DNA from: Euryarchaeota archaeon UBA19
GTDB taxonomy: Archaea; Thermoplasmatota; Poseidoniia; Poseidoniales; Thalassarchaeaceae
Assembly (NCBI GenBank): GCA_002502175.1
Contig: DAPQ01000060.1
Span: forward strand, 7,784-71,783
Reading direction: 5' to 3'
Length of the DNA: 64,000 nucleotides
Part shown: in pieces, positions 13,792-63,054 of the stretch
Layout of the letters: every line of letters begins with the position of its first letter
How positions within the stretch are numbered: position 1 is the stretch's first letter
Position numbers and translations under genes: made by a program
Notes under the pieces: generated by a model
What the model was told of the DNA's origin: nothing
Database searches by the model: none
The model's input: only the letters and a program-made list of their open reading frames with translations

Positions 13792-14823
13792 TTACATCAC
13801 ATCGTGGACGGTTGGCTCTGCTTTAGCCGAACGTACAGTTCGATACACCCCATATGAGGCCCAAGCGGCTATGAACCAAGCACATCCAATAACGAAGTCA
13901 TGTTGACCGCCGTTGGCAGACCAGTCGACTGCAAAGAAGAAGGCAATGACTGCAACTAGTCCACGCCTGACACCTTGTGGATAGGCCAATTCCATGGCTA
14001 AGTATTCCGGACCTGGGCCATGGCGTCTTTCGAGGATTTCCCGTTGGAACACGGCGCCTACGATTAGGGCGGTAAGGGAAGTCCAGTAAAACAGGTTACC
14101 ACTTTCAAATACTCTATCGGAAAGGTTCTTTTGTCGTTCTTTTTCTTTTTCAGCCTCACTTTCTTCAAGGACGAAGAGTGTTTGGTAATCACCAACAGCA
14201 ATTGTTCGAGTTTGCAAGGTTGCATCACCATCTCCCGCTGCAATAGTACCTGGTGGATTAATCGAAAAAGTCAGAACATTCCAGTAATCATACTCATTTG
14301 GAATCCCGTCTCCATTAACTGAATTTCCGGCTATACTGAAGAGTATTGTATCTGAATCAGATGATGGTGCGGTCCAAGTGATGGTCCAAACTCCATCACT
14401 GGTTTCTGAATGTGATATAGCATTTTCATCTCCATCAGCTTCTCTAATCTCTTGTGAATCATCCCAAGAGAAAGTCCCAGCGCCATTATCTGTTAGGAGG
14501 AATCCAGCTTTGGTGTTACCGTCCGCTCCAGCCAGAGTTACAGAATCAGCCACTGTGATTACAAACTCGTACGACTGATCTGATTCGTACATAACTGGGA
14601 CTCCTGAGACCATAACAACGGCTCTGTCACCCGGACTGGAATAATGACAAGTACACCCGTATTTGGCAGTCTCTTGATTATCTGAATTAAGATATGGTGG
14701 GCCACCGCTGTTGGCGAATGCTGGGATTGCTAGTAATCCTACTAGGCATAGAGCAACAACGAGCTTTGTTGGACGCACCATCATCAAGACCTCCTGTTTT
14801 CGTTGCGACCTCGTCAAACACAT
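13792..14823 (-). CDS. exported protein of a 'GCTCH...GNSVNGDGIP' family (paralog of 62236-63054), C-terminal TM anchor
   Basis: Signal peptide 'LVVALCLVGLLAIPAFANS'. Shared blocks with the 62236 ORF: 'YGCTCHYSSPGD', 'WTITWTAP', 'GNSVNGDGIPNEYDYWN'. Hydrophobic helices near the C-terminus. Confidence 0.4.
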   Translation of the reverse strand: MCLTRSQRKQEVLMMVRPTKLVVALCLVGLLAIPAFANSGGPPYLNSDNQETAKYGCTCHYSSPGDRAVVMVSGVPVMYESDQSYEFVITVADSVTLAGADGNTKAGFLLTDNGAGTFSWDDSQEIREADGDENAISHSETSDGVWTITWTAPSSDSDTILFSIAGNSVNGDGIPNEYDYWNVLTFSINPPGTIAAGDGDATLQTRTIAVGDYQTLFVLEESEAEKEKERQKNLSDRVFESGNLFYWTSLTALIVGAVFQREILERRHGPGPEYLAMELAYPQGVRRGLVAVIAFFFAVDWSANGGQHDFVIGCAWFIAAWASYGVYRTVRSAKAEPTVHDVM

Positions 14824-16294: not shown

Positions 16295-16602
16295 TGACCA
16301 CCCCTTTTCTTTCCAGCTATCATATTCAACATTCGATTAGTTACTGCGAATCCTCCAACTACGTTGATCATCGCGAGTACTAATGCTATGAAGGCAAGGA
16401 TTCCACTGACTACTGTGTCGCCACCTTCGTAGGCGACATTCGCCCCTAACAGAGCACCAACTATACTGATTCCAGAAATAGCATTAGCTCCACTCATTAG
16501 TGGGGTATGAAGAGTGGCGGGGACTTTGGTGATAAGTTCGAATCCTAAGAAAATAGACATTACAAAAAGCGTTACTGAACCAATTAAAACCGTAGGCTCC
16601 AT
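16291..16602 (-). CDS. pntAB: NAD(P) transhydrogenase alpha subunit, membrane part (PntAB)
   Basis: 103-aa three-TM protein. Its start and end overlap pntAA and pntB by 1 and 4 nt, the canonical pntAA-pntAB-pntB order. Confidence 0.7.
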   Translation of the reverse strand: MEPTVLIGSVTLFVMSIFLGFELITKVPATLHTPLMSGANAISGISIVGALLGANVAYEGGDTVVSGILAFIALVLAMINVVGGFAVTNRMLNMIAGKKRGGQ

Positions 16603-17798
16603 TACAACACACCTCCTAGTTTGCTCTGTTTAGGATGTATTTTTCCATCTGAACATATCAAAACCCCTCCCATTCCAGGGACGTAGAAATCATCTCCTTC
16701 AGGAGCACCTACTAATACATCGTCTTCATCTGAAATTACTAACTCGCCATCAATAAATATCGATGTAATGAAAGTGGTAAGGTTGTTTGAATACAACATG
16801 GAGGCTGTGTTTGCCAACGTGCCTGGGAGATTTCTCACTCCGATTATTGTTACACCGTTTTCTGTGACAACTGTTTCACCCGCAACTGTATCTTCACAAT
16901 TCCCTCCGACATCAGCATTCATGTCAACAATAACAGCACCGGACTTGAATGATTCAACAGCACTACTCGGTACTGTGATAGGTGCTGGCCTTCCAAAAAT
17001 TCTGGCAGTGGTTACAATGATGTCGGCATCGGAAGCGACTCCGCAAACTGTGTCATTGACTTTCTGAATGAACTCCGGAGTGAGTGGTTTTGCATAACCA
17101 GCTTCATCTTCGAAATCATCCATACCATCAACCTCAATGAATCTCCCCCCAACAGACTCTATCTGTTCTGCGGCTGACTTCCTCACATCGGAAGCATAGA
17201 CAATTGCGCCAAGTCTCTTTGCGGTTGCAATGGCTTGTAAACCAGCAACGCCACTACCCATAATCACAACTTTCGCTGGCCTCACAGTTCCTGCAGAAGT
17301 GGTCATCATCGGGATTCCCTTTGGTACTGAGGCGGCGCCCAAGAGTACCGCTTTGTATCCTGCCAGATTGTCTTGACTTGAATTTACATCCATGGATTGT
17401 GCTCTTGACAACCTTCGAGGAATCATATCCATCGACAGAAGGGTGATTCCTGCATCCAAGCAAGCCTGAACTTTTTCAGGATGACGAAACGGATCGGCCA
17501 CGCAAGCGATGACCTGACCCGCATGAAGTTCAGAGACATCTGGTAAGTGAACGGAAATAATTAGCGGAGATTTTAGGACTTCAAGTCTGTTTGAGATAAT
17601 TGCTCCGTTTTCTTCGTATTCGGAATCATAATGATTTGCGGAAATGCCAGCATTAGATTCCACCACTACTTCAAACCCAGACTTACTTAATTTACGAAGC
17701 GATTTCGGCACGATTGCAACCCTTGTTTCGCCTTCAGGTTCCTTCAACACACCTAGTCTCATACAAGTCCCTCGGTTCCTAATGAGCCATAGGCTCAT
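16602..17798 (-). CDS. pntAA: NAD(P) transhydrogenase alpha subunit, NAD(H)-binding part (PntAA)
   Basis: Alanine-dehydrogenase-like fold. 'MRLGVLKEPEGETRVAIVP' start; the likely true start is the internal Met. Rossmann motif 'KVVIMGSGVAGLQA'. Confidence 0.8.
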   Translation of the reverse strand: MSLWLIRNRGTCMRLGVLKEPEGETRVAIVPKSLRKLSKSGFEVVVESNAGISANHYDSEYEENGAIISNRLEVLKSPLIISVHLPDVSELHAGQVIACVADPFRHPEKVQACLDAGITLLSMDMIPRRLSRAQSMDVNSSQDNLAGYKAVLLGAASVPKGIPMMTTSAGTVRPAKVVIMGSGVAGLQAIATAKRLGAIVYASDVRKSAAEQIESVGGRFIEVDGMDDFEDEAGYAKPLTPEFIQKVNDTVCGVASDADIIVTTARIFGRPAPITVPSSAVESFKSGAVIVDMNADVGGNCEDTVAGETVVTENGVTIIGVRNLPGTLANTASMLYSNNLTTFITSIFIDGELVISDEDDVLVGAPEGDDFYVPGMGGVLICSDGKIHPKQSKLGGVL

Positions 17799-32765: not shown

Positions 32766-33593
32766 ATGGACTTCGGCGGTTCTGTAGGTTTAGTTGACAT
32801 GGAGCAATACCTAGCATTCCTCGAACGAATCCTTGACGAAGGAATAGAGAAATCTGATCGTACAGGCACTGGAACAATTTCAGTTTTCGGCCACCAAATG
32901 CGATTTGACTTGTCTGAATCTTTTCCAGCCGTGACCACAAAAAAACTTCATTGGCCTAGTATAATCCATGAATTATTGTGGTTTTTATCTGGAGATACTA
33001 ACGTTGCCTATCTACAGGAAAATAACGTTCGGATATGGAACGAATGGGCTGACGAAGATGGCGACCTTGGACCTGTTTATGGAAAACAATGGAGAAAATG
33101 GGAGACTAATGATGGCAGGGTCGTGGACCAAATTGAAAACGCCATTGAAATGATCAAACAGAACCCAAATTCACGAAGGATTATTGTTTCAGCTTGGAAT
33201 GTTGGAGAATTGGAAGATATGGCGTTAATGCCTTGCCATGCTTTTTTCCAATTCTATGTCAACGAAGGAAAATTGTCCTGCCAATTATACCAAAGAAGCG
33301 CCGATGCTTTTCTTGGAGTCCCATTCAATATTTCATCATACAGTCTTCTAACCTGTATGATGGCTCAAGTATGCGGATTGCAGCCCGGTGAATTTGTCTG
33401 GACTGGGGGTGATTGTCATTTGTACCTAAACCACTTAGAACAAGCCAAGGAACAAATTTCTAGGAAACCACTTCCATTGCCTAAACTCAGGTTAGATGAG
33501 ACTATCTCCGAAATAGATGGATTTACTGCAGAGAGTATTGAAATTCTCAATTATGAGCATCACCCACATATTTCGGCACCAATATCTGTTTGA
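32766..33593 (+). CDS. thyA: thymidylate synthase (ThyA)
   Basis: '[38 protein letters not shown]', active-site '[10 protein letters not shown]'. Conserved throughout. Confidence 0.9.
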
Positions 33594-33602
33594 GGTAATA
33601 AT

Positions 33603-34112
33603 ATGCGTATGTCGATGATTGTTGCTATGGATGAAGAGGGCTGTATTGGAAGGGGAGAAGGACTTCCATGGCGTTTAGCTTCGGACATGGCTCGATTCAA
33701 ACAATTGACTGAAGGAGATGGGTTTAACGCCGTAATTATGGGAAGAAAAACTTGGGATTCACTTCCCGAAGCATATCGGCCATTACCCGAGCGATTAAAC
33801 ATCGTTATGTCAAGAGACACCGGATGGGAAGCGGATGGAGCAGAGACCGCTCTATACATCGGCCGGGCCATAGAAATCGCGTATGCGGATGGTTGCGATG
33901 AATGCTGGATAATTGGCGGGGCTCAGATTTACCAAATGTTTCTTGATCGAGTAGAAGAAATTCATCTTACAACGGTCCAAACCAATAATAGTGGCGACGT
34001 GAAATTCCCAGAATGGAATCGTACTGAATGGTCTGAGGAAGTTATTGAAAAATTGCAATCAGACTCCAATAACGAATACGACACTACATATTCCATCTGG
34101 ACTAGGCGATAA
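33603..34112 (+). CDS. folA: dihydrofolate reductase
   Basis: 'MIVAMDEEGCIGRGEGLPWRL...IMGRKTWDSLP', the typical DHFR N-terminus. Lies 9 nt after thyA. Confidence 0.85.
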   Translation: MRMSMIVAMDEEGCIGRGEGLPWRLASDMARFKQLTEGDGFNAVIMGRKTWDSLPEAYRPLPERLNIVMSRDTGWEADGAETALYIGRAIEIAYADGCDECWIIGGAQIYQMFLDRVEEIHLTTVQTNNSGDVKFPEWNRTEWSEEVIEKLQSDSNNEYDTTYSIWTRR

Positions 34113-37554: not shown

Positions 37555-38508
37555 TCACTCTTGCAGACGGGAAATCAAATCTGCTTTCTTTCCTGAGACT
37601 GGTTTTCCAGCCTCCTTTAGAAGTCCCTTTAGTTCAGAAACCGTCATTGTTTCGTAATCAATCTCAGAGACATCGGATGATTCAGTATCCTCCTCTTGGG
37701 AATCTTCAGCGCCTTCCTCTTCCACTTCCTCAGATGCTTCTTCTGGCTCTTCATCTGAATCAGCCTCTCCAACCTCAGAAAGATCTGCAGATGCTTCTGC
37801 TGCTGCTAAAACATCGACTTCCTCTACTTCAGCGGCTGCAGCAGCGGCCTTCTCCTCAGCATGTATTTCATCCAAGGTAGGACCATCTTCTACGACTACT
37901 CCGCTTTGTAATAACTGACTGCGTCTAATCATAACGGTTCTGACGGGAGTGACCTTGGAAACCGATTCTTTGATTGCTGCTTCCATCGTACCATCGAGTA
38001 GCGCTTTTTGCAATTGAATCCAAGTTGAACTAGCACCCATAGTCAGGATTGTTTCTCTAGCACTAGCCCTCATTGCAGATTTTTGACTGGATTTTACACG
38101 AGATCTTGAAATTAGTAGAGGCTTGAATCTGACGTAATACCCATCATCGGTGACAACATCTACTGTGTCGTCAACCTTTCCACGATGACGGCGGATTTGG
38201 CGGCGAATGTGGTCTTTTAGCACGTTGTGTCCGACAAATTCAGTAAGCGCATCTCCACCGACAGATTCTGTTATTCGGAAAACTACCTGAACGTGCATCT
38301 TCGAAAAGTCGCCATCTAACTCATTTTGCATGATGTCGTATGTTCGACCAATTAGTTGTTCGGAGTCCTCTGCGAGGGTCTCTCCAATGACTCTGAATGA
38401 CCAAGGATTACGAGGTGCTCGAATTGTGAACCAGCGCTTTGCCTTCCACTTGTCTCTCTGCTTGCGTGCCGCTGCCCTTGCTTTTGCGCCCTTTGCCATG
38501 AGAAACAC
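37555..38508 (-). CDS. rps3ae: 30S ribosomal protein S3Ae (eS1) fused to acidic tract and C-terminal SAP domain
   Basis: N-terminus 'KQRDKWKAKRWFTIRAPRNPWSF...IGRT' is S3Ae. Then a ~75-aa Glu/Asp/Ala-rich tract. The terminal 'MTVSELKGLLKEAGKPVSGKKADLISRLQE' fits the SAP consensus. The likely true start is the 4th codon (MAKGAK). Confidence 0.75.
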   Translation of the reverse strand: MFLMAKGAKARAAARKQRDKWKAKRWFTIRAPRNPWSFRVIGETLAEDSEQLIGRTYDIMQNELDGDFSKMHVQVVFRITESVGGDALTEFVGHNVLKDHIRRQIRRHRGKVDDTVDVVTDDGYYVRFKPLLISRSRVKSSQKSAMRASARETILTMGASSTWIQLQKALLDGTMEAAIKESVSKVTPVRTVMIRRSQLLQSGVVVEDGPTLDEIHAEEKAAAAAAEVEEVDVLAAAEASADLSEVGEADSDEEPEEASEEVEEEGAEDSQEEDTESSDVSEIDYETMTVSELKGLLKEAGKPVSGKKADLISRLQE

Positions 38509-40472: not shown

Positions 40473-41492
40473 TCACAATTTTCCACGAGTTGTCCCTAAT
40501 TTTCGTTTCTTGGACTTTCTCGGCTTTGACGCCCGGGGTTCTGACTCTTCTTCAATTCCTGTACCGCCGAGAGTCAAAGAGCCACTTTCTAGTAACATCT
40601 CTTCTAATGACCCAGCTAGTTCTTCACTTTCGGATGGCGATCTAATAGCGTCTCTAACTGATTGATTGTGGTCTCGTATAGTCTTCTCACGTTCTTCTCG
40701 AGCGGCTTTTATTGAGTCACGGATTTCATTGACTTGGTCAAGCAGTGCTTTCATTTCAGTATGGACTTCATCAGCCGCTGCTTTTGCTTCAACAAATACG
40801 TTGTGAAGCCTATCACCCTCAGCCCTTAGGAAGTCTCTTTCCTCAAATAGTGGCTTAATTTCCTCCCATATTTCATCACCTTGCTTATGGCAATCTACCA
40901 TTGCTTGGTGTTCTGAATCAGCCTCTGCTTTTAGACGATTAATCGATTCATCCATGTCGCCAAGATCTATTGTAATAGACTCATGTTCCTTTACCGCGGG
41001 AAGTAATTCATTTCTCTTACCAATGAGTTTCTTTAGTTCCTTCAGGAGTTTATTTTCATCTTCCAATTTCAGTCTGCCATCAGTTTCTAAACGCCTCTCA
41101 ATCTTGTCAATTTGCCCTTCGGTTTCTGACAATTCAATAACTACTGATTTAGAACCTCTTTCGTCATCCCTACGACCACGTTTTTTCGAAATTATCTCTC
41201 TGATATGACCCTGGATTTCGTCTCTTCTAGCCTTGTGAATTCTTGCCTGGTCTCTAATTTCTTTTTGTTTAGCCTTCATTTCGTCAATAGATTCGCGTAA
41301 ACCTTTGGCTTGTTCTTGAACAGCATTCCGCGAATCGGCTGCTCTACGAGCGTTCTCATTGTGACTATTGCGATTATCTCGCATACGCCTTACTTTGGTC
41401 TCCATAGCGTGTAGGCGACTCCTGAGGTCATCGTCAGGGTTGGTAGTCTCGTCAGACACGGCCACGCCACGAGCGTTTGCCTCTTGAATCAA
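40473..41492 (-). CDS. charged coiled-coil protein (paralog family with 45628/46611/47643 ORFs), basic C-terminal tail
   Basis: Heptad-rich, KR/ED-rich. Shared central block 'IERRLETDGRLKLEDENKLLKELKKLIG' (cf. 'TSALDHKAEKKMIERRKKLI', 'GRFLGKKEKEFVAKMKKLHQEL'). C-terminus 'KPRKSKKRKLGTTRGKL'. Confidence 0.4.
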   Translation of the reverse strand: MIQEANARGVAVSDETTNPDDDLRSRLHAMETKVRRMRDNRNSHNENARRAADSRNAVQEQAKGLRESIDEMKAKQKEIRDQARIHKARRDEIQGHIREIISKKRGRRDDERGSKSVVIELSETEGQIDKIERRLETDGRLKLEDENKLLKELKKLIGKRNELLPAVKEHESITIDLGDMDESINRLKAEADSEHQAMVDCHKQGDEIWEEIKPLFEERDFLRAEGDRLHNVFVEAKAAADEVHTEMKALLDQVNEIRDSIKAAREEREKTIRDHNQSVRDAIRSPSESEELAGSLEEMLLESGSLTLGGTGIEEESEPRASKPRKSKKRKLGTTRGKL

Positions 41493-43758: not shown

Positions 43759-45651
43759 TTATGGTTCTCCAACCTCTGCTAGGAATTCACAGCGGCAGGC
43801 AGGACACCTAGCCTTTACTGGACGTCTGTTAATTGGGATTTTTAGAGTTTGATCGCAACTAGGGCAAGATAGCAAATCATCCACTGAGCGAGCGGATATC
43901 TCTTGAGGAGTTGAAGTGGAAGGTGAATCATTTTGGGTCGCAATGTTTTCTTCTTCTGAAATTTTGTCTTCATCTTCTGACTCGATCGATTCGACCATGA
44001 ATCGAGCGGTACAAGCAGGACATTTCACGGCACCAGAATGGCTGTTCGGAATGTGCAGACGTTGGTCGCATTCGGGACACGGTATCTCTCTTTTTTCTAC
44101 TGCTGCAGACTTTTTCTTTTCCCCTCTGGCTTCTCTTAGTCGATTAAATCTTGATTTTCCTGTGTCCTCTACGCTTTCCGATACTGTTCGATATAGAACT
44201 AAAATGAACATTACAAGAACTAAACCTGTGACCGTTCCATAAATTGCGGCGACCAAATCAAATGGCAATTCTGCCTCTGCATTATTGTCGGAAAATGTTT
44301 CTATCTCCAAAAGAAGGCTTTCGGTAAGTCCACTAGTTACCCATATTATATGCACATCAACAACTTTTGAATCGGGCCACTGTTCGATGGTGAATTCACT
44401 GCTAAATGATTCACTTGGATTAATTGAAAAAGTTGGAATTGTGTCGAGTATCATGTTATCTGAATTTCGCACTACTCTTACCTCTCCTGCTAAAGTCGGA
44501 GTATTACCATTATTGGTTAAGGAGAACGGGATTTTTACACTTTCACCCACCACAGGAGCTGTGCTTACACCTTCAGAAGTAACCACAAGATCTAGTATAG
44601 GAGGAGTGAGTGTAGTCTGAATTTCAATTTCCTCTTCGGCCGTCCAAGTAACTGTATTTACTCGAATAATTAGTGCGTCTGCTGAAGGATTTCCTAGATC
44701 GAGGTTTAGTTGCCTTCGACCAGGATCCATGGTAATTAGGAAAAATTGTAAATTAGACTCAATAGTTTGATCGATTATTGCAACTTCGATTTCAACTTCC
44801 CTAGATCGGCCATCACTAAGGTAAAGAGAGAGTTCTGAACTTAGGCCATCTTCAAGATTCCAGTCCAAAGAATCAACTACTAACTGGATTGATTGAGGCT
44901 CTAAAACTTCAATCACAGTGGTACCGTTGAGTTCTCTTGCGACACCTCCATTGCTGGAATGAACCTTCCAATCTAGTTTGATTGAGCCTGAAGAAGAGGG
45001 TGAAAATGATGCGGAAACCTCCCTACTCGAACCGGGATTAATCAGTATGGCTTGGCCTTGAATAGGGTCTGACCCCTCAGGTGATATAACCAAACTAACA
45101 GATTCAGGATTCTGACCTTGATTATGGACCAATATTGAAGCGGTAAGTGAATCCCCAACATGGGCAGGCTCGCCAATAAGTGCTATTTCGGAGGAGCTAG
45201 CAGCAGTCAAGTTCAGAGGATTGGGTTCTACTAGTAAAGTAAGACTTTCACTCTGACCCGAAGAATCAATTCCGAAAATCAGATTCAAAACTCCTTCAGG
45301 CAGTGGACCGAATGAAATGTTGACTATCACAGTCGAATCTGAACCCTCAAGGAAACCAGTGAGTTCAGGAGTGGTTTGACCGTCCAATTCCATCACAAAC
45401 CACCACTCATCATGTCCAGCAGTAGTATCACTATTTGATACCTCGATGGATAATTGAATTCGGTCGCCTGCAAAAGCAGATGAATTCTCCGAAGGAAGGG
45501 ATGTTGAACCATCGATGATTGTATTATCCCAATCTGCTGAATTTTCTATACTGAATCTATCCTGGGCACTAACATTTAGCGAAATTAGGGTTACAAATAC
45601 AACAGAGGCTGTTATCACAAGCAAGTTGTGAGGACGAACGCCTGTATTCAT
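43759..45651 (-). CDS. surface protein: signal peptide, large extracellular Ig/CARDB-like region, single TM, cytoplasmic tail with two zinc ribbons
   Basis: Signal 'LVITASVVFVTLISLNVSA'. TM 'LVAAIYGTVTGLVLVMFILVLY'. Cytoplasmic 'CPECDQRLHIP...VKCPACTARF' and 'CPSCDQTLKIP...ARCPACRCEF'. Acidic linker between them. Confidence 0.45.
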   Translation of the reverse strand: MNTGVRPHNLLVITASVVFVTLISLNVSAQDRFSIENSADWDNTIIDGSTSLPSENSSAFAGDRIQLSIEVSNSDTTAGHDEWWFVMELDGQTTPELTGFLEGSDSTVIVNISFGPLPEGVLNLIFGIDSSGQSESLTLLVEPNPLNLTAASSSEIALIGEPAHVGDSLTASILVHNQGQNPESVSLVISPEGSDPIQGQAILINPGSSREVSASFSPSSSGSIKLDWKVHSSNGGVARELNGTTVIEVLEPQSIQLVVDSLDWNLEDGLSSELSLYLSDGRSREVEIEVAIIDQTIESNLQFFLITMDPGRRQLNLDLGNPSADALIIRVNTVTWTAEEEIEIQTTLTPPILDLVVTSEGVSTAPVVGESVKIPFSLTNNGNTPTLAGEVRVVRNSDNMILDTIPTFSINPSESFSSEFTIEQWPDSKVVDVHIIWVTSGLTESLLLEIETFSDNNAEAELPFDLVAAIYGTVTGLVLVMFILVLYRTVSESVEDTGKSRFNRLREARGEKKKSAAVEKREIPCPECDQRLHIPNSHSGAVKCPACTARFMVESIESEDEDKISEEENIATQNDSPSTSTPQEISARSVDDLLSCPSCDQTLKIPINRRPVKARCPACRCEFLAEVGEP

Positions 45652-46614
45652 TGTCTGACCCTCGGAGCGGGTCAGTGTATCAAGGAAACCCTAATTCAAG
45701 GTCACGTAGTGACCTTTATGATGGGCCCTAATTTCCGCCGTTTGCATATGGAGTCTGAAGGCCTGCTAGCGGTGACGCCTGACGAATTGGCGCAGGCTTT
45801 GTTAGATAGGAGGGTTTTGCTGAAGGAGCAATTACCCACTGTTATTCGTACACTCGAGGCCGAGGAACAGAACCTTGCTCCAAAGCTATCTCGTTCAGCA
45901 GATAAACACAAACAGGCAAATGAAATTGTTGCTAAGTTGAAAGTGGAACGCGACCAAGCACAAATCGCAGCCCGAAATCTGCTCCCGAAGGTAAAGGAAT
46001 ATCGGGATAAATTGGTGGAATCTGGTGGGATGGTAAACCTTGACCCAGATTGGAAAAAAGAAAAATTGTTTGAAGAATTGGATGAAATCGAAGAAAATAT
46101 CCAGACTTCGGCGTTAGATCACAAAGCTGAGAAAAAGATGATTGAACGTAGAAAAAAGTTGATTCAACAAAACGAAAAATGGCTCAAGGAAAGAAGAGAT
46201 TCAAACCCGGAAATGGCAGATTACATCGATTCTAGAAGAGAGATGTCTTACCAATTTACAATTGCCAACAAGGCTCATAGAAATATGATCAAAGCCGTGG
46301 AAAAGGCGCAACCGTTGCATGAGAAAAAAGTAGCGATGGAGGCAGAAATAAGAGACGTCAGAAGACAATTGGACAGAGCCAAAGAATTACTGTCTCAATC
46401 TGACCAAGCAATAGAACATTGGCAACGCCGATTAAAGGATGGGTATGGAGAATTAGGACTAGGATTCCCTGACCTCCTTAAAGACATGATTCAAGTCCAG
46501 GAGGGAGGAGACTCTAGTTTCGCTAAGAGGCACAAGAAAAACAAACAGAATTCAAAGAAAAATAGTGTTGAGAATGGGCGAATAAACTCCGATTCGAGGG
46601 GTGAGGAAGAATGA
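45628..46614 (+). CDS. charged coiled-coil protein (paralog family); probable start at 45721 or 45748
   Basis: Heptad-rich. Central block 'DWKKEKLFEELDEIEENIQTSALDHKAEKKMIERRKKLIQQNEKW'. Basic C-terminus 'KRHKKNKQNSKK'. Confidence 0.4.
   Translation: MRTNACIHCLTLGAGQCIKETLIQGHVVTFMMGPNFRRLHMESEGLLAVTPDELAQALLDRRVLLKEQLPTVIRTLEAEEQNLAPKLSRSADKHKQANEIVAKLKVERDQAQIAARNLLPKVKEYRDKLVESGGMVNLDPDWKKEKLFEELDEIEENIQTSALDHKAEKKMIERRKKLIQQNEKWLKERRDSNPEMADYIDSRREMSYQFTIANKAHRNMIKAVEKAQPLHEKKVAMEAEIRDVRRQLDRAKELLSQSDQAIEHWQRRLKDGYGELGLGFPDLLKDMIQVQEGGDSSFAKRHKKNKQNSKKNSVENGRINSDSRGEEE
45698..45716. promoter_or_regulatory. perfect 19-bp palindrome AAGGTCAC-GTA-GTGACCTT in divergent intergenic region (candidate metalloregulator operator)
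   Basis: Exact 8-bp inverted repeat with a 3-bp spacer. Lies between the minus-strand operon that encodes the DtxR-like regulator and the plus-strand coiled-coil genes. Confidence 0.4.
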
Positions 46615-47576
46615 GCGATGGTTTGTTCGATGATCTTGAGGAGCTACCTCATGATGAAATCGAAGAGAAGGTCAAACAATTAGACCGTGAATTACGCTCA
46701 TTAGATGAAGAATTCAACTCACTGCGTCAAGAACGAAGAAACCAAGTGGAAATTGTAAAATCGTTGAGAGGAGCATTCGATGGAATTCAAGAGGTGAATT
46801 CTGAGAGGCGAATGCTGTTGAGAGAATTTCATGAAATAAAGAAAAAGGCAGACAAGCATAGAGCATTACGAGATAGAGTCAACCTATCTATTCCGCCACC
46901 TGCTTCTGTATTAGAAGAATGGATGGCAGACACACACTCTAAGTTAACCACCATAGATAACGACCTTACAGCAGTCCCCACCATAAATAGGGAATTGGAT
47001 TCATTTCGACGATTTTTCGAATTACAAGCAGCTGTGGTACGTAAGCGTGAGGCAGAAGATGCTCATGCACAGTATGTAGTTCAAATTGAGGATTTACGAA
47101 AAGTTACATCTAAATTAGACGCAACAAAGAAGGCTGGCAAGGATGCCGCAGATTCAGCAACAGAAAATAATGAAGTTAATCCTGACAACATAACTCGTAG
47201 TGAAATTAGGAAAATGAGCAAGCGAATCAGCAGCATAGATAAGCGGTTAGACACGATTAAATCACAACGTAAGAAATTACGAAGGGAATCAGGTAGAGTC
47301 CGGTCATATCAGAAAATAACTTCAGGAAGAGGGAGAAAAATCCGTCTAACTGATGTAAAAGAGAGAGCAAGTAAAGGAGGTTCACTAAACGCCAATGAAT
47401 TATCTGCTTTACTAGATTCAGGCAGTTTGACAGGTATCACAAATGAAGCAAGCAAACCGGAGTCTACGAAATCAAACGCACCTAGGAAAGGTAGAACGGG
47501 AAAGAAAGGAATGCGAAGACTAGGTGTCACTAGAGGTGGACCAAGGAAGGGTAACTCCGCTAGTCGGAGGGAATGA
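46611..47576 (+). CDS. charged coiled-coil protein (paralog family), Arg/Lys-rich C-terminal tail
   Basis: 4-nt overlap with the upstream paralog. Heptad-rich. C-terminus 'PRKGRTGKKGMRRLGVTRGGPRKG'. Confidence 0.4.
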   Translation: MSDGLFDDLEELPHDEIEEKVKQLDRELRSLDEEFNSLRQERRNQVEIVKSLRGAFDGIQEVNSERRMLLREFHEIKKKADKHRALRDRVNLSIPPPASVLEEWMADTHSKLTTIDNDLTAVPTINRELDSFRRFFELQAAVVRKREAEDAHAQYVVQIEDLRKVTSKLDATKKAGKDAADSATENNEVNPDNITRSEIRKMSKRISSIDKRLDTIKSQRKKLRRESGRVRSYQKITSGRGRKIRLTDVKERASKGGSLNANELSALLDSGSLTGITNEASKPESTKSNAPRKGRTGKKGMRRLGVTRGGPRKGNSASRRE

Positions 47577-47642: not shown

Positions 47643-48524
47643 ATGAAGATGGAAAGCGGGGAAATTCGCGGGATTCTTCAACCACTCTGTGACGATATTC
47701 AAGAACAGATATCCTACAATCGGGAAGAAAGGGACCAATGGAATTCGAAAGTCCGTAAATTACTCGACGAACGCAACGAGTTAAATCGGCAAGTTAAGGA
47801 ATTAATCACAGAGGTGCAGAATCAAAAATCTCTACGAGATGATGCAAACCAAACCGTTAGAGAATTAAAAGAAATAAGGGCTGAAAGGACTGAGGTACTA
47901 AGAGTAATTAGGACCGATTTTAGGGAGAAAATAGCCGAAAATGGCTCTCAAGAAGAAAGACAGGAGAAACACGATAAAACTCGCTCACCAGGAAGAATTA
48001 GAACAGAAATAGACCGTTTGGAAAAGCAATACAACGAAGGTCGGTTCCTTGGTAAAAAGGAAAAAGAGTTCGTCGCTAAAATGAAAAAGTTACATCAAGA
48101 ACTTAGAGAAGCTAAGGAAAAGAAATCCGATGGTGGAATAAGAGAATTAAAGATTCAACTTAGAGATGCTGAAAAGAAACAAGAAGACGCCCACAAGAAG
48201 GTGAAGCGGGCAGTAATAGGCGCTCAAGAAGCCCATGACTTGATGGCTGAATTATCGGAAGAGGTCGATAGATTACGAGAGAAGGCAAATTCAGCTCAGT
48301 CAGGAGTTACTCGGGCTAAAAGAGAAGCAGATTCTCTCCATGGAAGATACATTGTATCGTTGAGGTGTATACATTCCATGCAAGATTTACTCAAGGCTCT
48401 GGAAACTAGAGAAGGCGGTGTTACAGAGGACGACGAGCAAGTCGAAGTCGCTGATCTAATGACACGACTAATGTCTGGAGACACATTATCTACTGACGAA
48501 ATCATGGCGCTTCAGAGGAATTGA
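47643..48524 (+). CDS. charged coiled-coil protein (paralog family)
   Basis: Central block 'GRFLGKKEKEFVAKMKKLHQELREAKEKK' and heptad-rich flanks. 293 aa. Confidence 0.4.
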   Translation: MKMESGEIRGILQPLCDDIQEQISYNREERDQWNSKVRKLLDERNELNRQVKELITEVQNQKSLRDDANQTVRELKEIRAERTEVLRVIRTDFREKIAENGSQEERQEKHDKTRSPGRIRTEIDRLEKQYNEGRFLGKKEKEFVAKMKKLHQELREAKEKKSDGGIRELKIQLRDAEKKQEDAHKKVKRAVIGAQEAHDLMAELSEEVDRLREKANSAQSGVTRAKREADSLHGRYIVSLRCIHSMQDLLKALETREGGVTEDDEQVEVADLMTRLMSGDTLSTDEIMALQRN

Positions 48525-58221: not shown

Positions 58222-58809
58222 TCAAGCACTCTCCACGATTAGTCTGAATGCGGTACTTGAACCGGCAACTCGGCTATATCGAACTACTCGCACTACTCTG
58301 TTTGCAAGCCATCCAGCAGGTAAATCATCTATCTCCGACTCTACCTTTTCTTTGATAGCTTGAACGGCAGGGTCGGTAATTAGAAGCTTAGGCAATAATT
58401 CCTTTGCAATCCTAATTCCGCCTTCATTGTCAGGAACTTCTAAACCCCAATGAGACAATACTGCGGACTCTTCTTCTTGTGAGACCAATTCATGGTGAGG
58501 AACTAATATGTGATTTAGGACATTAAAGCGATCGTCACCCTGAGGGATGTCGTCTAGTTCCAATGCCTTTCTTGAAATTGTAATTCTGCCGGAACGACTG
58601 CGTCGACGAGAGGTGTTGTGCTCTCTGATAATGGACATGATATTCTCGAGTGTTGCATCGCTCATCGCTACTCCAGTCTTTTCGGAAACTTCCTCAACCG
58701 TCATTCGCTTGATTGCATCCATGTTTGCGTCGTCAGCGAGTTTGTGGGCATGTTCTGCATCTATGCCCAACTCGATTAGACGCTTTTTTGTAGAACTCTT
58801 AACTGCCAT
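58222..58809 (-). CDS. rpoH: DNA-directed RNA polymerase subunit H with ~100-aa N-terminal (HhH)2-like extension
   Basis: C-terminal '[15 protein letters not shown]...[14 protein letters not shown]...[22 protein letters not shown]' is RpoH/Rpb5-C. The N-terminal '[26 protein letters not shown]...' is paralogous to the RpoA'' N-terminus. Confidence 0.8.
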
Positions 58810-58932: not shown

Positions 58933-59094
58933 ATGGCTAGTGCTGGGCTGCCGGTCGTCCGAAGGGGTGTTTAAGAAAGTGACGGTCTATGCGTAGCATA
59001 GGCACGGCTGGACCATTCACCCTCTTGGGGGCCGAGAGAGCGGAAAGAAGTAAGGACTTCCATGAATAAAGGTTTGCGCAATTAAGGTGATAAA

Positions 59095-60465
59095 ATGGGC
59101 ACTAGTGAAATATCCAGAGAGGTCGAATACTCCTCTTCAGATCATTCCAAGGTTCATGATTTCAAGATAAACGATAAGAATTCTATCAAGTTGATTGTGC
59201 CGCCTACTGTTTACCCACCCAGAAGAGACACTAAACTGTTGCTTAAGGGGCTGGAACGCATTAATTTGCAACCAGGAAATTTGGTCGAGATTGGATGTGG
59301 TTCAGGGGCAATTTCAATTGCCAAGGCTCTGGAAGGCTGGAATGTAACCGCCTTTGATGTAAATCCACTGGCCGTAGTTGCAACAAAAGGAAACTCGGAA
59401 GTTGCAAAAGTGAACGATAGAGTCACAGTAGAAGAGGGAGGCGTTGGGGAAGAACATTGGAAGTTACCCGATAATGCGGACTTAGTCGTATGGAATTTAC
59501 CATACCTAACCCCGGATTTAGAAAATATACTTGGGCCAATGGAAGAAGCGGCTTTAACCGATGAGAGAATTACAGGTTGGTCTGAACAATTACTCGAGCT
59601 AGCAAATGAAGAAAGTCAAAATGGAACGATATTTGTGCTTCTAATAAACTCTGATTCGAATCCAAAAAATTCACCATTAACATGGATAAGGAAAGGCTGG
59701 TCAAAAAGGTCTTTGGCAGTCGAAAGAGTTGGAGACGATACCCTAGAAGTTATAGCATTCTGGAGACCTGGGTTTGGTTCAGAACCCATCTACCTAGAAA
59801 TGACAAATTCGACCATGGATGAGGCACGAAATTTACCTAATTTTGGGTGGCAGAGAATTCGTTCTGGAGAACAGATTAGCGGGAGAGGAAGGAAAGGGGC
59901 AATTTGGCATTCAAATCAAGGTGACATGATAGCCTCTTGGAGCGTTAAATTAGAGGAATTAAATCAATTGAATCCGGGGCTATTACAAGTATCAATAGGA
60001 GCATCAATTTGTGAAGCATTAGGAGTCCAAATGAAATGGCCAAATGACTTGATTTGGCAGGGTAGAAAATGCGGCGGAATTTTACTTGAATCTAGCACAT
60101 ATGATGGAACAATTAGGATCGGTGTTGGATTAAACAAGAATGGGGGAGAAATAGAAGGTTTTTCCTATTCTGGATGGACTGAATATTTCGGGGAGATTGA
60201 CTCTAACGAGATGTTTCAAATTATTGATGCCGCAATAGGATCAATTTTGGATTCTACACCGCCAATAGATTCTATTGAAAATACATTATGGCAACAGAAA
60301 TCTTGGGCCCAATTATGTGACATTCTATCCACAGGCGTGGTAGCCAAATTTGAGGGAAGGGAAGTAAATATTGTTGGCCTTTCTAATGCTGGCAGTTTGA
60401 GAGCATATTCAGATAGTTCGGAATACGAAATATCTGATATTGATGACTTTTCCATTACTTTCTAG
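59095..60465 (+). CDS. fusion protein: N-terminal HemK/PrmC-like class I methyltransferase + C-terminal biotin--protein ligase (BirA catalytic domain)
   Basis: MTase: 'VPPTVYPPRRDTKLL', motif I 'VEIGCGSGAISIA', motif IV 'VVWNLPYL' (NPPY variant). BPL: 'GRGRKGAIWHSNQGDMIASWSV' and 'KWPNDLIWQGRKCGGILLE'. GGTGA Shine-Dalgarno-like sequence 6 nt upstream. Confidence 0.65.
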   Translation: MGTSEISREVEYSSSDHSKVHDFKINDKNSIKLIVPPTVYPPRRDTKLLLKGLERINLQPGNLVEIGCGSGAISIAKALEGWNVTAFDVNPLAVVATKGNSEVAKVNDRVTVEEGGVGEEHWKLPDNADLVVWNLPYLTPDLENILGPMEEAALTDERITGWSEQLLELANEESQNGTIFVLLINSDSNPKNSPLTWIRKGWSKRSLAVERVGDDTLEVIAFWRPGFGSEPIYLEMTNSTMDEARNLPNFGWQRIRSGEQISGRGRKGAIWHSNQGDMIASWSVKLEELNQLNPGLLQVSIGASICEALGVQMKWPNDLIWQGRKCGGILLESSTYDGTIRIGVGLNKNGGEIEGFSYSGWTEYFGEIDSNEMFQIIDAAIGSILDSTPPIDSIENTLWQQKSWAQLCDILSTGVVAKFEGREVNIVGLSNAGSLRAYSDSSEYEISDIDDFSITF

Positions 60466-60847
60466 GTGGTCTTGGAAGCCCCATACGTTCTCTAACCAAC
60501 CTAATCTTTCCGGAAGTAGTCAAAGATTCTATTTCTGGGTTTGAATGCAATTTTCGCCTAGCGGATTCTTTGTTTTCAAGATTTAACCTAATTATCGCCA
60601 ATGTATCTGATTGGGACGACAAACAATCGAGTAATCGGAAATTAATGTCCGGTAAATTTTGTTCAATAATTTTGCCTACAGAATTTCGAGATAACTCACC
60701 TTTGTTTATTCGTAAACCCATCCAACGATGTTTGCCACGGGAGGCTTTGCTCTGCCGAGCCATGCTTCGGCGAGTAGGTCGATGCTTAACGAGTTCCCGC
60801 TTGATTGAACTTAGAAAATTACGTCGGTTACAATTACGAAAGGCCAC
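60455..60847 (-). CDS. basic hypothetical protein (weak Rpp29/Sm-fold-like resemblance)
   Basis: 130-aa, highly basic N-terminus. 'SGKIRLVRERMGLPRP' resembles the Rpp29 C-terminal 'GERLVGRPEMR'; the match is weak. Overlaps the upstream FtsZ-like gene start by 14 nt. Confidence 0.25.
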   Translation of the reverse strand: MAFRNCNRRNFLSSIKRELVKHRPTRRSMARQSKASRGKHRWMGLRINKGELSRNSVGKIIEQNLPDINFRLLDCLSSQSDTLAIIRLNLENKESARRKLHSNPEIESLTTSGKIRLVRERMGLPRPPRK

Positions 60848-61751
60848 TAACTACTGCAACTAATCGTAACCTACCCACCATTTCATCGCTAGCTCTTGCT
60901 CCTAAAATCACCTGACAATCAGGGTGTAGAGAACTGACTAATGATTCGCTTAATTGATTTAGATGATGCAAAGTCATGTCCGGTCCACCTTCAACTTGGA
61001 TCAAACAACCCTTTGCTCCTGACACATCTACTTCAGTTAGCGGAGAACGTCTAGCTAACTCTACAACCTGCAAAGGATCTACAACACTGCCTGTCCCCAC
61101 AATTAAAGTGGCTCCACCTTGGTGTTCTACTACTGTTCGAAGATCCATTAAGTCAAGATTGAGTTTTCCTACTTTGGCCAAAGTTGTAACAAGGCCTTCG
61201 ACTAAATCTTGGATCCAACCAGAGCCGGATTGCCAATCCTCATCTCTTGCCCTTGCATACCATGCAAGTCTTTCCATACTGACGCGTATACAGACATGGG
61301 ATTGCCCCTCTAGAGCAGGTAAAGCCGTGTTTGCGATAGAGCTTCGAAGAGGTTGCTCAGCAAATGGCAGACCAGCTATAGACATCACAATACAATTCCT
61401 TGCGCGTGCGATTCTTGCAAGTTCACTTGCGGCCCCAGAACCTGTACCCCCGCCTAAACCAGTCATTATGAACAATAATTCTGCTTTGTCCAATAATGAT
61501 TCGATAGCTCCGAGGCCCTCACTCAATCGATGTGCTGCAAGGTTAGGGAGAGCTGCCGCTCCACTTCCATCACCTATTGCGTCTAGGTGTAGGCAATGCG
61601 CTTGACCTGAGCCCCTAAACGAGGCTTCATCAGCATCTATCAATAGAAGATCGGATAGGTCAGCACACTGTTGGTGGGCTGCTACAGCCCAGGCACAACC
61701 AAGGCCACCGACTCCAGCGATGAGTATCGCGCCCTCGTGCATATATGCCAT
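60834..61751 (-). CDS. short FtsZ/tubulin-superfamily GTPase (no C-terminal linker/tail)
   Basis: T1 'ILIAGVGGLGCAWAV', T4 signature 'GGGTGSGAA', T7 'NLDLMDLRTV'. 305 aa. Confidence 0.6.
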   Translation of the reverse strand: MAYMHEGAILIAGVGGLGCAWAVAAHQQCADLSDLLLIDADEASFRGSGQAHCLHLDAIGDGSGAAALPNLAAHRLSEGLGAIESLLDKAELLFIMTGLGGGTGSGAASELARIARARNCIVMSIAGLPFAEQPLRSSIANTALPALEGQSHVCIRVSMERLAWYARARDEDWQSGSGWIQDLVEGLVTTLAKVGKLNLDLMDLRTVVEHQGGATLIVGTGSVVDPLQVVELARRSPLTEVDVSGAKGCLIQVEGGPDMTLHHLNQLSESLVSSLHPDCQVILGARASDEMVGRLRLVAVVSGLS

Positions 61752-62235: not shown

Positions 62236-63054
62236 ATGATGAGAGTGCATCTACCGACCTTTCATCGGCTTGTAGTTCTAGGCTGTTTCGCCATATTATT
62301 GGCTGGTTCAACACAAGGATATTCAAATGGAATCGGTGGAGATGAAAATGGTGACGGGGATGTGGCTCTTGCAGGTTGTACTTGCCACAATGAATTACCT
62401 GACAACTCAGTGACTGTAATCTTAGATGGACTCCCATATCACTATTCAGCAGAGACAACTTACACACTTACCATTCAATTAATCGGAGGCCCTGATATTG
62501 ATTCTACTTCCAACACTGGTGGGTTCGCCATGAGAGTGAGCGGAGGTTTGCTAGCCGCAGCTGAAGGGTTTGAAACTCAAGTCCAAAATTGGGAAGAAGA
62601 TGGAGCAAGCTTAACCCATACTGGTTCCGGTGCTGCAACCTCAGATAGAACTTGGATGATAACTTGGACCGCCCCCCAAACAGGTGCTGGCCCTGTCACC
62701 ATTTGGTTGGTAGGAAACTCTGTCAATGGCGACGGAATCCCAAGTGAACTCGATAGATGGAATCGGCTTTCAGTGTCTCTAGAGGAAGGAGAAGATGCAG
62801 GAGATACAAGAACCGTTTTCAGTGGTAATGGTGAGATAGAGCCTCCGGCACCAGTAGAAACACATGTCGATCTTCACCACATGGGCGCTAAGCTACGAGC
62901 ACACTGGCTAGGTCTGCTTGGGTTTGCAGCCGTTATTCTAGTCATACTATTCTGCGGATTCTTCCTAAGATATGGATTCTCGAGACATTACGTCGGAAGA
63001 AGTAATTTGCTAAAGTTACGAATCAAGCACCTACGCCGAGGTGATCAACTATGA
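62236..63054 (+). CDS. exported protein of the 'GCTCH...GNSVNGDGIP' family (paralog of 13792-14823), C-terminal TM anchor
   Basis: Signal 'LVVLGCFAILLAGSTQG'. 'AGCTCHNELPDN', 'WMITWTAP', 'GNSVNGDGIPSELDRWN'. C-terminal helix 'LGLLGFAAVILVILFCGFFL'. Confidence 0.4.
   Translation: MMRVHLPTFHRLVVLGCFAILLAGSTQGYSNGIGGDENGDGDVALAGCTCHNELPDNSVTVILDGLPYHYSAETTYTLTIQLIGGPDIDSTSNTGGFAMRVSGGLLAAAEGFETQVQNWEEDGASLTHTGSGAATSDRTWMITWTAPQTGAGPVTIWLVGNSVNGDGIPSELDRWNRLSVSLEEGEDAGDTRTVFSGNGEIEPPAPVETHVDLHHMGAKLRAHWLGLLGFAAVILVILFCGFFLRYGFSRHYVGRSNLLKLRIKHLRRGDQL

Follow-up and report, generated by a model that had tools for sequence, protein, structure and literature searches.

In the genome of a marine archaeon of Marine Group II (order Poseidoniales), a single open reading frame encodes a methyltransferase of the HemK2/Mtq2 type followed by a complete class I biotin-protein ligase. 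These protein-modifying enzymes, which are otherwise unrelated, come together in what the structure model depicts as one rigid polypeptide. A fusion of a methyltransferase with a biotin-protein ligase had been claimed by the original prediction for this DNA, a stretch of 64,000 nucleotides (the window, hereafter), and the claim has proved right: the fusion is genuine and conserved, with both halves in one ORF, and judging from the sequences compared it appears fixed across the whole order. The best reading of its product, which we consider probable, is that of a bifunctional housekeeping enzyme composed of an aRF1-GGQ methyltransferase and a carrier-domain ligase, probably working independently of each other.

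Architecture of the Fused Protein

The gene and the elements of its product are located as follows:

59081..59089, + strand: Shine-Dalgarno-like AAGGTGATA, including AGGTGA, 5 nt before the ATG (read from the sequence)
59095..60465, + strand: whole fused gene, one ORF of 456 aa plus stop with an ATG start (ORF listing)
59095..59175, + strand: residues 1-27, an N-terminal extension peculiar to the family, with a helix and then the first hairpin beta-strand
59176..59763, + strand: HemK2/Mtq2-type class I SAM-dependent N-methyltransferase, residues 28-223 (HMM, Foldseek, phmmer)
59206..59232, + strand: TVYPPRRDT, the Mtq2/HEMK2 N-terminal signature, residues 38-46 (VYEPAEDT in N6AMT1)
59287..59322, + strand: motif I, the SAM-binding loop E-I-G-C-G-S-G (E65, G67 and G69 invariant in 90 homologs)
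59353..59367, + strand: FDVNP, the motif II region, aligned with TDINP of N6AMT1 (D88, N90 and P91 invariant)
59494..59505, + strand: motif IV, with N-L-P-Y in place of the catalytic NPPY (alignment of homologs)
59764..59778, + strand: junction of five residues, PGFGS, linking the final strand of the methyltransferase to the initial strand of the ligase
59779..60213, + strand: biotin-protein ligase catalytic domain, residues 229-373 (Pfam BPL_LplA_LipB; TIGR00121 over 255-373)
59881..59928, + strand: biotin-binding loop GRGRKGAIW... (Q260, G263, G265 and W271 invariant; R264 and R266 at least 90% conserved)
60034..60051, + strand: KWPNDL with the catalytic lysine K314 (KWPND identical in 81/81 ORFs)
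60121..60135, + strand: GVGLN, the glycine-rich adenylate-binding motif GxGxN (G343, G345 and N347 invariant)
60214..60462, + strand: ligase C-terminal cap domain, residues 374-456 (Foldseek; beta-strands 416-455 of the model)

All the motifs quoted in the original prediction are there, namely PRRDTKLL (42-49), EIGCGSGAISIA (65-76), NLPY (134-137), GRGRKGAIWHSNQGDM (263-278) and KWPNDL (314-319). Its division into halves of ~200 and ~220 aa was correct as to the two halves and slightly off in the boundaries, which we place at 28-223 for the methyltransferase, 224-228 for the linker and 229-456 for the ligase. In the AF2 model of the full-length protein (pLDDT 88.6, pTM 0.90), strand 232-237 comes next after strand 215-223, no linker of low confidence separates them, and such a short junction combined with a two-domain pTM of that value suggests that the domains form one rigid body. 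The N-terminal extension is modelled as a helix (3-15) and two strands (19-24 and 30-35), with a pLDDT of only 59-73 for residues 1-20, and its motif 'I(E/S)RE(I/V)E' is conserved even in 35%-identical homologs. Standalone Mtq2-like proteins begin near VY(E/P)P and do not have this extension, which contains no cysteines and consequently is not a Zn-knuckle.

The Methyltransferase Half

The domain search proposed along with the original prediction matched the N-terminal half, well above chance, to methyltransferase profiles, and a fold search matched it to HEMK2. Pfam returned PrmA (E 8.6e-11) and MTS (E 2e-6, 27.9 bits, cutoff 23), and NCBIfam returned PRK14968 (archaeal HemK-related, 1.7e-15), RF_mod_PrmC (1.2e-14) and hemK_rel_arch (3e-11), the best methyltransferase models of the latter collection (PRK14968, RF_mod_PrmC and TIGR00537) being all protein-glutamine methyltransferases. 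A profile of 44 standalone Mtq2-like proteins was matched with 134.7 bits (E 7e-40, model positions 5-196 of 199). In a phmmer search of the PDB, the alignment with human N6AMT1/HEMK2 ran end to end (query residues 38-223, chain positions 10-201 of 203, E ~1e-5). With the N-domain modelled on its own (pLDDT 84.7), the top 9 PDB matches of Foldseek were structures of human N6AMT1/HEMK2/KMT9, HEMK2-TRMT112 structures leading, with target-length TM-scores of 0.64-0.74. The previous description as HemK/PrmC-like was right about the HemK family, with the qualification that the nearest relatives are of the Mtq2/HEMK2 type rather than bacterial PrmC.

Mtq2/HEMK2 (N6AMT1, KMT9) is the eukaryotic and archaeal N5-methyltransferase of the release-factor GGQ glutamine, which works with Trm112. 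It shares with the fused protein the class I fold and the motifs VYxPxxDT, ExGxGSG, D(I/V)NP and NxPY, whereas the fused protein differs in the NLPY form of motif IV in this lineage, in the N-terminal extension and in the covalently attached ligase, and departs from canonical Mtq2 in a motif III region reading 'EEGGxGE' and in the segment after motif IV. With bacterial PrmC/HemK it has in common the HemK-type catalytic core and an 'E..AL...G' segment after motif IV, but neither the helical N-terminal domain of PrmC nor the L11-binding domain of PrmA is present. Within the signature, V39, Y40, P41, P42 and D45 do not vary among 20 diverse homologs and reach at least 90% conservation among 90; the acidic residue D88 would bind the SAM ribose by analogy with class I methyltransferases. 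Other invariant residues of this half are family-specific (E114, G118, E150, R205 and W223). Altogether, these comparisons of sequences identify residues 28-223 as a divergent member of the HemK2/Mtq2 family with an intact SAM pocket and an N-x-P-Y motif.

The curated cutoffs were nevertheless missed in every case: TIGR00537 gave 43.4 bits against 87, PRK14968.1-3 gave 57 against 162 and RF_mod_PrmC/TIGR03534 gave 54.4 against 199, and even the best fused relative (the divergent member P0149) reached 74 bits over the whole TIGR00537 model, under its cutoff of 87. Falling below all the curated families, this half is a divergent offshoot, the substrate of which may have changed. PrmB and PrmA modify ribosomal proteins, and METTL5 and Trm11 act on nucleic-acid bases (m6A or m2G). 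The half could be an active N-methyltransferase with such another target, neither aRF1 nor a biotin enzyme (Gln or Lys of a ribosomal protein, or an m6A or m2G base), a paralog kept beside a canonical Mtq2, which we see as possible though unlikely. Apart from the scores under all curated HemK2 cutoffs, it agrees with a fold search that also gives METTL21 lysine methyltransferases, PrmA and METTL5 (E ~1e-9 to 1e-8), with PrmA as the best Pfam methyltransferase match, with the NCBI product name '50S ribosomal protein L11 methyltransferase', and with a gene that has the RNA polymerase operon and a tRNA beside it, an operon link not being evident. However, the PrmA match goes no further than the generic core for SAM binding (148-233 of the 296 profile positions), and TIGR00406 gave 42.6 bits against a cutoff of 183; as the L11-binding domain is missing and the TIGR00406 cutoff is not reached, the NCBI name is probably a misannotation. 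Both the signature VYPPxxDT and an alignment running end to end point specifically to Mtq2/HEMK2, the nine best structural matches are all HEMK2, and a fusion involving the only mtq2 of the lineage would be more parsimonious than a duplication followed by fusion.

Motif IV and Selection on Both Halves

Because motif IV reads NLPY, the question had been raised whether the methyltransferase half is active or serves as a binding module; comparison with relatives makes inactivation improbable. Among 90 homologs, W133, N134, P136 and Y137 never vary, L135 has a conservation of at least 90%, and the motif is NLPY in 77 and NIPY in 4 of the 81 ORFs that we compared. Across the fused clusters defined at 50% identity it may be NLPY, NMPY, NTPY, NAPY or NPPY, the canonical NPPY being carried by fused copies of Poseidoniaceae, and standalone Mtq2-like relatives show NPPY, NAPY, NSPY, NTPY or NLPY. 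Since the second position also varies in the standalone proteins, and Poseidoniaceae fused copies have NPPY, the NLPY variant is probably permissive. In Haloferax, Mtq2 methylates aRF1 at GGQ, and the tyrosine of NPPY is essential (PMC6144793).

Both halves are under purifying selection, stronger on the methyltransferase, as estimated from dN/dS values of 0.09-0.12 for this half and 0.15-0.25 for the ligase, with mean pairwise identities of 49.5% and 41.1%, respectively. The invariant catalytic residues, taken together with this selection, make both halves look catalytically active. It is very improbable, in our opinion, that the methyltransferase half has become a catalytically dead module for binding or scaffolding, comparable to the noncatalytic extensions of eukaryotic class III ligases. 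Such a module would fit the replacement by leucine of the proline after the N of NPPY, the scores under family cutoffs and the occurrence in class II and class III ligases of N-terminal domains that are noncatalytic for ligation (PMC3199775; PMC12582158). Against it, the SAM-binding and catalytic positions are all invariant down to ~35% identity, the variable position of N-x-P-Y changes freely in standalone Mtq2-like proteins and is the canonical proline in Poseidoniaceae, the methyltransferase dN/dS of ~0.1 lies below that of the ligase half, and one MAG keeps the methyltransferase intact despite an in-frame deletion in the ligase core.

The Ligase Half

The C-terminal half was recognised by Pfam BPL_LplA_LipB (E 9e-12, 45.5 bits, cutoff 21) and by NCBIfam birA_ligase (E 7.5e-18), with 65 bits on TIGR00121, under the cutoff of 83.1; relatives of the fused protein score 47-77 bits on this model. 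A sequence search of the PDB returned BirA/BPL chains down to E 1.3e-10. The best Foldseek match was the Pyrococcus horikoshii ligase (E 1.7e-13), aligned over 243 columns with the whole 231-235-aa protein at a TM-score of 0.78 (normalised by target length).

The original prediction had spoken of a BirA domain, a label that does not fit. No HTH domain was found in the fused protein with Pfam or NCBIfam, and the class II BirA models PRK11886 match the ligase core only (query 258-352, 51 bits against a cutoff of 293), so that the half belongs with class I ligases such as the P. horikoshii enzyme, not with the BirA repressor. Class I ligases (P. horikoshii PH0147, A. aeolicus, M. jannaschii) have the same catalytic domain and cap, the same motifs and no HTH, and differ in lacking the N-terminal methyltransferase module of ~228 residues; the P. 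horikoshii enzyme has been seen as a dimer. R266 aligns with R118 of E. coli BirA, and K314 is the equivalent of its K183. Ser or Ala stands in the fused family where E. coli has R121 (GRGRxGRxW). By these motif comparisons, the half is a complete class I biotin-protein ligase, with its predicted biotin loop, catalytic lysine and adenylate motif intact.

Distribution and Genomic Context

A frameshift or a stop between the halves in relatives had been named as what would speak against the fusion, and neither these nor a split was found: 81/81 ORFs, corresponding to the window and the best 80 GTDB loci, all from Poseidoniales, carry both halves in one shared reading frame. The syntenic position of the gene is the same across those 80 loci. 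In public protein sequences there are >115 full-length fused clusters with identities of 35-92%, and 57 further clusters (50% identity), some from Poseidoniaceae, are likewise fused; named carriers span both Thalassarchaeaceae and Poseidoniaceae. That the long ORF is an artefact, either of a chimeric assembly or of a frameshifted pair of adjacent genes, is hardly conceivable. This explanation was raised only as a refutation criterion of the original prediction, nothing was found in its favour, and it is contradicted by 80 independent GTDB species genomes, where the ORF runs uninterrupted, synteny is conserved and a split never occurs, and by the same ORF in metagenomic clusters that number in the hundreds and come from several sequencing projects.

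Viral copies of the fused gene were not found in IMG/VR. Adjacent mtq2 and ligase genes in other archaea, a possible origin of the fusion, were not seen in the three contexts examined. The apparently standalone proteins at the top of the representative search, 204 and 210 aa long, proved to be fragments of fused genes cut off at contig ends, and the true standalone relatives with names belong to DPANN (Diapherotrites, Aenigmarchaeota and Nanoarchaeota). A canonical Mtq2 of 187 aa (locus L081, on a marine contig of 1.6 Mb), considered as a Poseidoniales copy, comes with a GC content of 33-38% and a crenarchaeal-type SSB, and probably belongs to Nitrosopumilales instead of MGII.

The gene order is conserved as RNA polymerase operon, rpoH, tRNA-Lys, fused gene, 130-aa ORF and FtsZ-like gene. 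With a divergent tRNA on one side and a convergent ORF on the other, the fused gene is apparently monocistronic, and the Shine-Dalgarno-like hexamer, with a putative role in initiation, supports its annotated start. The idea that the neighbouring 130-aa ORF was the RNase P Pop5 subunit found no support on checking. No gene for aRF1, BCCP or a carboxylase was seen near the fused gene, and hence context offers no clue to function. The profile of 44 standalone proteins mentioned above detected no second Mtq2-like ORF in the 64-kb window or in the ~20-kb flanks of the 80 relatives. Neither BCCP nor biotin carboxylase was found in the window or in those flanks by phmmer with the E. coli AccB biotinyl domain, motif scans and Pfam on ~55 window ORFs.

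Proposed Function and Comparison with Other Fusions

As a bifunctional housekeeping enzyme, the protein would carry out two chemistries. The ligase half would make biotinyl-5'-AMP and then move the biotin onto the carrier-domain lysine of biotin-dependent carboxylases or decarboxylases. The methyltransferase half would methylate a protein nitrogen, of either an amide or an amine; by analogy with the job of Mtq2 in other archaea, the likeliest target is the GGQ glutamine of the release factor aRF1. Orthologs of Mtq2 have been reported from all archaeal phyla (PMC6144793; PMC5372719). Both reactions probably run independently, by analogy with ligase fusions such as BirA-CoaX. The union of the two genes may then stem from gene fusion in small marine genomes, and perhaps from each half stabilising the structure of the other, rather than from a shared pathway; Poseidoniia have been reported as enriched in gene fusions (PMC11237513).

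The ligase likewise tolerates extra domains in class II BirA (HTH plus ligase), in class III ligases and in fusions that include an unrelated enzyme, such as BirA-CoaX (NCBIfam model NF009862), where the ligase is joined to type III pantothenate kinase, and the PycA-ligase fusion of Methanocella (PMC11237513). Unlike in those cases, the partner here is a protein methyltransferase, N-terminal and, according to the model, rigidly attached, a partner that does not appear in the literature searched. Archaeal fusions of Trm112 with a methyltransferase, in which an enzyme of the Mtq2 or Trm9 type is covalently joined to its partner (PMC5372719), differ in that the partner of the present protein is a ligase located at the C-terminus.

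The tight packing of the model, with its five-residue junction and high pTM, could also mean functional coupling and would then argue against independence. The two halves might be coupled through methylation of BCCP, of a carboxylase subunit or of the ligase itself, or through SAM modulating the ligase, which would tie biotinylation to methyl-donor status, options that we hold to be unlikely. Lysine methylation has been reported as well for HEMK2/KMT9, and the client of the ligase presents a specific lysine. Coupling would also be compatible with the apparent single rigid body, with a fusion kept order-wide (fission in 0/81) and with the divergence from canonical Mtq2 in missed cutoffs and family-specific invariant residues, as expected if the substrate had changed. 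But BCCP and carboxylase genes are not linked to the fused gene, ligase fusions of the BirA-CoaX type (NF009862) can do without mechanistic coupling, conservation falls on the catalytic residues generic to HemK enzymes, and no biotin enzyme is known to require N-methylation. A related conception, also improbable, sees the protein as a single machine, where the methyltransferase would be retargeted to such a substrate or would sense SAM to gate biotinylation, or where the ligase body and the N-terminal extension would replace Trm112 as the obligatory stabiliser and activator of an enzyme of the Mtq2 type.

Previous Annotations and Significance

The original prediction had called this architecture previously unseen, which is too strong. 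No paper describing a methyltransferase-ligase fusion or this protein was found in the literature searched, and the examined supplements of an archaeal fusion survey do not list it. On the other hand, hundreds of fused homologs are already public and pipelines label them as bifunctional: the JGI pipeline gives 'biotin-(acetyl-CoA carboxylase) ligase/methylase of polypeptide subunit release factors' and the TARA pipeline gives 'COG2890 K03524'. Independently, some of the fused proteins bear the name 'release factor glutamine methyltransferase' in IMG.

If the fused half is indeed the only Mtq2 of the lineage, it would be the first release-factor methyltransferase carried on a metabolic enzyme, and one that possibly works without Trm112. 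If it is not the Mtq2 of the lineage, we would be facing an orphan enzyme of the HemK family with a new target, and should Poseidoniales encode a canonical standalone Mtq2, the fused domain would be a paralog. A single machine, if true, would tie methyl-donor status, translation termination and the activation of carboxylases together through a new regulatory link. As a natural ligase with a large N-terminal fusion, the protein may interest biotin-ligase engineers. Moreover, the fused gene is a clean lineage marker for a group that is among the most abundant archaea of the ocean.

A single reading frame for two enzymes

Profile searches revealed two unrelated enzyme domains in one reading frame, both members of well-known families, within the following setting:

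59095..60465, + strand: fused gene, single ORF of 456 aa with an ATG start
5 nt upstream of that ATG, + strand: AGGTGA, a Shine-Dalgarno-like hexamer read from the sequence
58222-58809, - strand: RpoH, 195 aa, Rpb5_C domain confined to residues 95-191
60455-60847, - strand: 130-aa basic ORF, convergent, with an 11-nt overlap with the 3' end of the fused gene
60834-61751, - strand: FtsZ/tubulin-family protein, 305 aa, 127.8 bits against an FtsZ equivalog cutoff of 295

The original prediction of a HemK/PrmC-like methyltransferase joined to a BirA ligase had relied on five motifs, all of which lie where it placed them: PRRDTKLL (residues 42-49), EIGCGSGAISIA (65-76), NLPY (134-137), GRGRKGAIWHSNQGDM (263-278) and KWPNDL (314-319). 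In Pfam, the ORF matched BPL_LplA_LipB (E 9e-12) and MTS (E 2e-6), both over their cutoffs, as well as PrmA (E 8.6e-11). Matches in NCBIfam to birA_ligase (E 7.5e-18), the archaeal HemK-related PRK14968 models (1.7e-15), RF_mod_PrmC (E 1.2e-14) and hemK_rel_arch/TIGR00537 (E 3e-11) all fell below the curated whole-protein cutoffs. A sequence search of the PDB related the C-terminal half to biotin-protein ligases, and aligned the N-terminal half with nearly all of the 203-residue chain of human N6AMT1/HEMK2.

The fusion is real. A search of 5.8 billion proteins recovered upwards of 115 clusters of full-length proteins at 35-92% identity, both Pfam domains being present in each. When only the N-terminal domain served as query, an exhaustive search of representatives added 57 more clusters at the 50% identity level, of 430-670 aa and with the ligase half included. 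The GTDB was scanned at one genome per species, retaining the best 80 of 333 tblastn matches, all from Poseidoniales; since the 333 may take in unfused methyltransferases, the count is restricted to these 80 loci. No frameshift or split was found in them or in the window, and both halves always occurred in one ORF (80/80 loci plus the window), as originally proposed. Named fused members come from both Thalassarchaeaceae and Poseidoniaceae, so the fusion is older than the split of these families. No copies were found on viral contigs in IMG/VR. A syntenic copy in a Thalassarchaeaceae MAG (GCA_030749595.1, locus L089, 7359-8510; protein P0383) carries an in-frame deletion of ~80 residues (window residues ~273-354), which removes the ligase catalytic core including KWPND and GxGxN and leaves the methyltransferase half intact. 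Seen in one MAG only, it could be a true ligase-dead variant or an assembly artefact.

Genomic context

The closest relatives place the window in the Thalassarchaeaceae, Marine Group II (MGII), order Poseidoniales. The tRNA-Lys(UUU) and the rpoH-rpoB-rpoA'-rpoA'' operon diverge from the fused gene, and the convergent 130-aa ORF is followed by the short FtsZ-like gene. Of the 80 loci, 70 have RpoH upstream, all have the 130-aa ORF downstream and 77 have the FtsZ-like gene, a neighbourhood unchanged even in very divergent members; the gene order gives no hint of an operon partner. The 130-aa ORF had no match in Pfam, NCBIfam or PDB and is apparently a small protein conserved within this lineage and specific to it, and the low FtsZ score marks its neighbour as a divergent paralog. 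RpoH bears an N-terminal extension of ~90 residues, unusual for archaeal RpoH.

Further features of the window are:

37555-38508, - strand: ribosomal protein S3Ae, 317 aa, with a SAP domain at its C-terminus and an acidic linker
62236-63054 (+) and 13792-14823 (-): pair of secreted/anchored paralogs, both with a 'CTCH' motif and with a transmembrane anchor at the C-terminus
40473-41492 (-), 45628-46614 (+), 46611-47576 (+) and 47643-48524 (+): four clustered genes for long coiled-coil proteins, of which two match DUF7121
14864-17798 (-): PntA/PntB NAD(P) transhydrogenase
32766-34112 (+): ThyA + DHFR pair

S3Ae-SAP is apparently a further domain fusion of the UBA19 genome, and the protein at 62236-63054 resembles a choice-of-anchor V domain (NF041895, E 7e-27). 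The PntA/PntB and ThyA + DHFR genes are bacterial-type metabolic genes in this archaeal genome.

The methyltransferase domain

An HMM trained on 44 Mtq2-like proteins of the standalone type matched residues 28-223 with 134.7 bits (E 7e-40, model positions 5-196 of 199), a partly circular test because those proteins were themselves found by similarity to the fused domain; the few that are named are labelled as methyltransferase or HemK2/MTQ2 family. The domain was modelled with AF2 (pLDDT 84.7), and the nine top PDB matches to the model were all human N6AMT1/HEMK2/KMT9 (TM-score 0.64-0.74 normalised to target length, 22-26% identity), followed by METTL21A, Thermotoga HemK, METTL5 and PrmA. The N6AMT1 motifs VY(E/P)PxxDT, E-x-G-x-G-S-G, D-(I/V)-N-P and N-x-P-Y are all matched, and its terminal 'TL.V..F' strand aligns too. 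Moreover, TIGR00537 scores higher in more divergent fused members, reaching 74 bits over the full model in protein P0149 against a cutoff of 87. Altogether, these HMM, structural, motif and TIGR00537 results place the domain as a divergent branch of the HemK2/Mtq2 family, short of certified membership.

PrmA, the name given by NCBI, was rejected: the Pfam match covers the generic SAM-binding core alone, and TIGR00406 scores 42.6 against a cutoff of 183. For comparison only, a canonical standalone Mtq2 (187 aa, NPPY) occurs at 10001-10564 of locus L081, on a 1.6-Mb marine contig (ENA ERZ28548090), where it adjoins a ribosomal-protein/SecY cluster; a GC content of 33-38% and a crenarchaeal-type SSB suggest a source in Nitrosopumilales, not MGII.

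The NLPY variant had raised the question of an inactive methyltransferase half, which the alignments make unlikely; the variant is probably permissive. Residues E65, G67, G69, D88, N90, P91, W133, N134, P136 and Y137 are invariant among 90 sequences. The 81 genomic copies read NLPY (77) or NIPY (4), the wider fused family NLPY, NMPY, NTPY, NAPY or NPPY (the latter in the P0143 cluster, from Poseidoniaceae), and standalone relatives NPPY, NAPY, NSPY, NTPY or NLPY, so that the true consensus is N-x-P-Y. The methyltransferase half is also the better conserved, with a mean pairwise identity of 49.5% versus 41.1% for the ligase half, and Nei-Gojobori dN/dS values against near relatives of 0.09-0.12 versus 0.15-0.25. 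At the sequence level, both active sites are conserved.

The ligase domain and the junction

[quoted passage not shown] The biotin loop residues Q260, G263, R264, G265, R266 and W271 are conserved, as is GxGxN, and KWPND, the catalytic lysine motif, is identical in 81/81 copies. No HTH was found in the fused protein, and its C-terminal half is a normal class I ligase and no BirA repressor.

The final strand of the methyltransferase (215-223) gives way five residues later to the first ligase strand (232-237), with no low-confidence linker between the halves. With the whole-chain pTM, this predicts one rigid body. In class I methyltransferases the C-terminal strands lie at the sheet edge opposite beta-3, the site where Trm112 binds Mtq2, and consequently a ligase replacing Trm112 is not obviously favoured. 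Another candidate for that role is the family-specific N-terminal extension, a helix and hairpin at residues 1-35.

Proposed function

Mtq2 orthologs are reported from all archaeal phyla, and Haloferax uses Mtq2-Trm112 to methylate aRF1 at the glutamine of GGQ, an activity killed by mutation of the NPPY tyrosine (PMC6144793; PMC5372719). Given this distribution, capture of the lineage's own mtq2 by fusion as the simplest history, and the IMG pipeline label 'release factor glutamine methyltransferase' on some fused proteins, we favour a bifunctional protein whose N-terminal half would methylate the GGQ of aRF1 and whose C-terminal half would act as a biotin-protein ligase, the substrates of both being inferred. 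The two activities are probably independent. Precedents for joining a ligase to an unrelated enzyme are the ligase/pantothenate kinase model NF009862 of NCBIfam and a PycA-ligase fusion in Methanocella, and gene fusions are reportedly enriched in Poseidoniia (PMC11237513). The domain has diverged from the curated Mtq2 models far enough that its substrate may well have changed or that it may be coupled to the ligase. The chance that the protein conceals a genuine functional link between methylation and biotinylation is modest. No second Mtq2-like gene, BCCP or carboxylase was found in the 64-kb window or within ~20 kb around the gene in the 80 relatives.

The architecture is not previously unseen, as first thought, since public databases already hold fused proteins under automatic names; our literature search found no paper describing it, and the accessible parts of the archaeal fusion survey, main text and supplements, do not mention it. 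The fusion extends across the order, an uncultured group of very high abundance, and it is cleanly testable.
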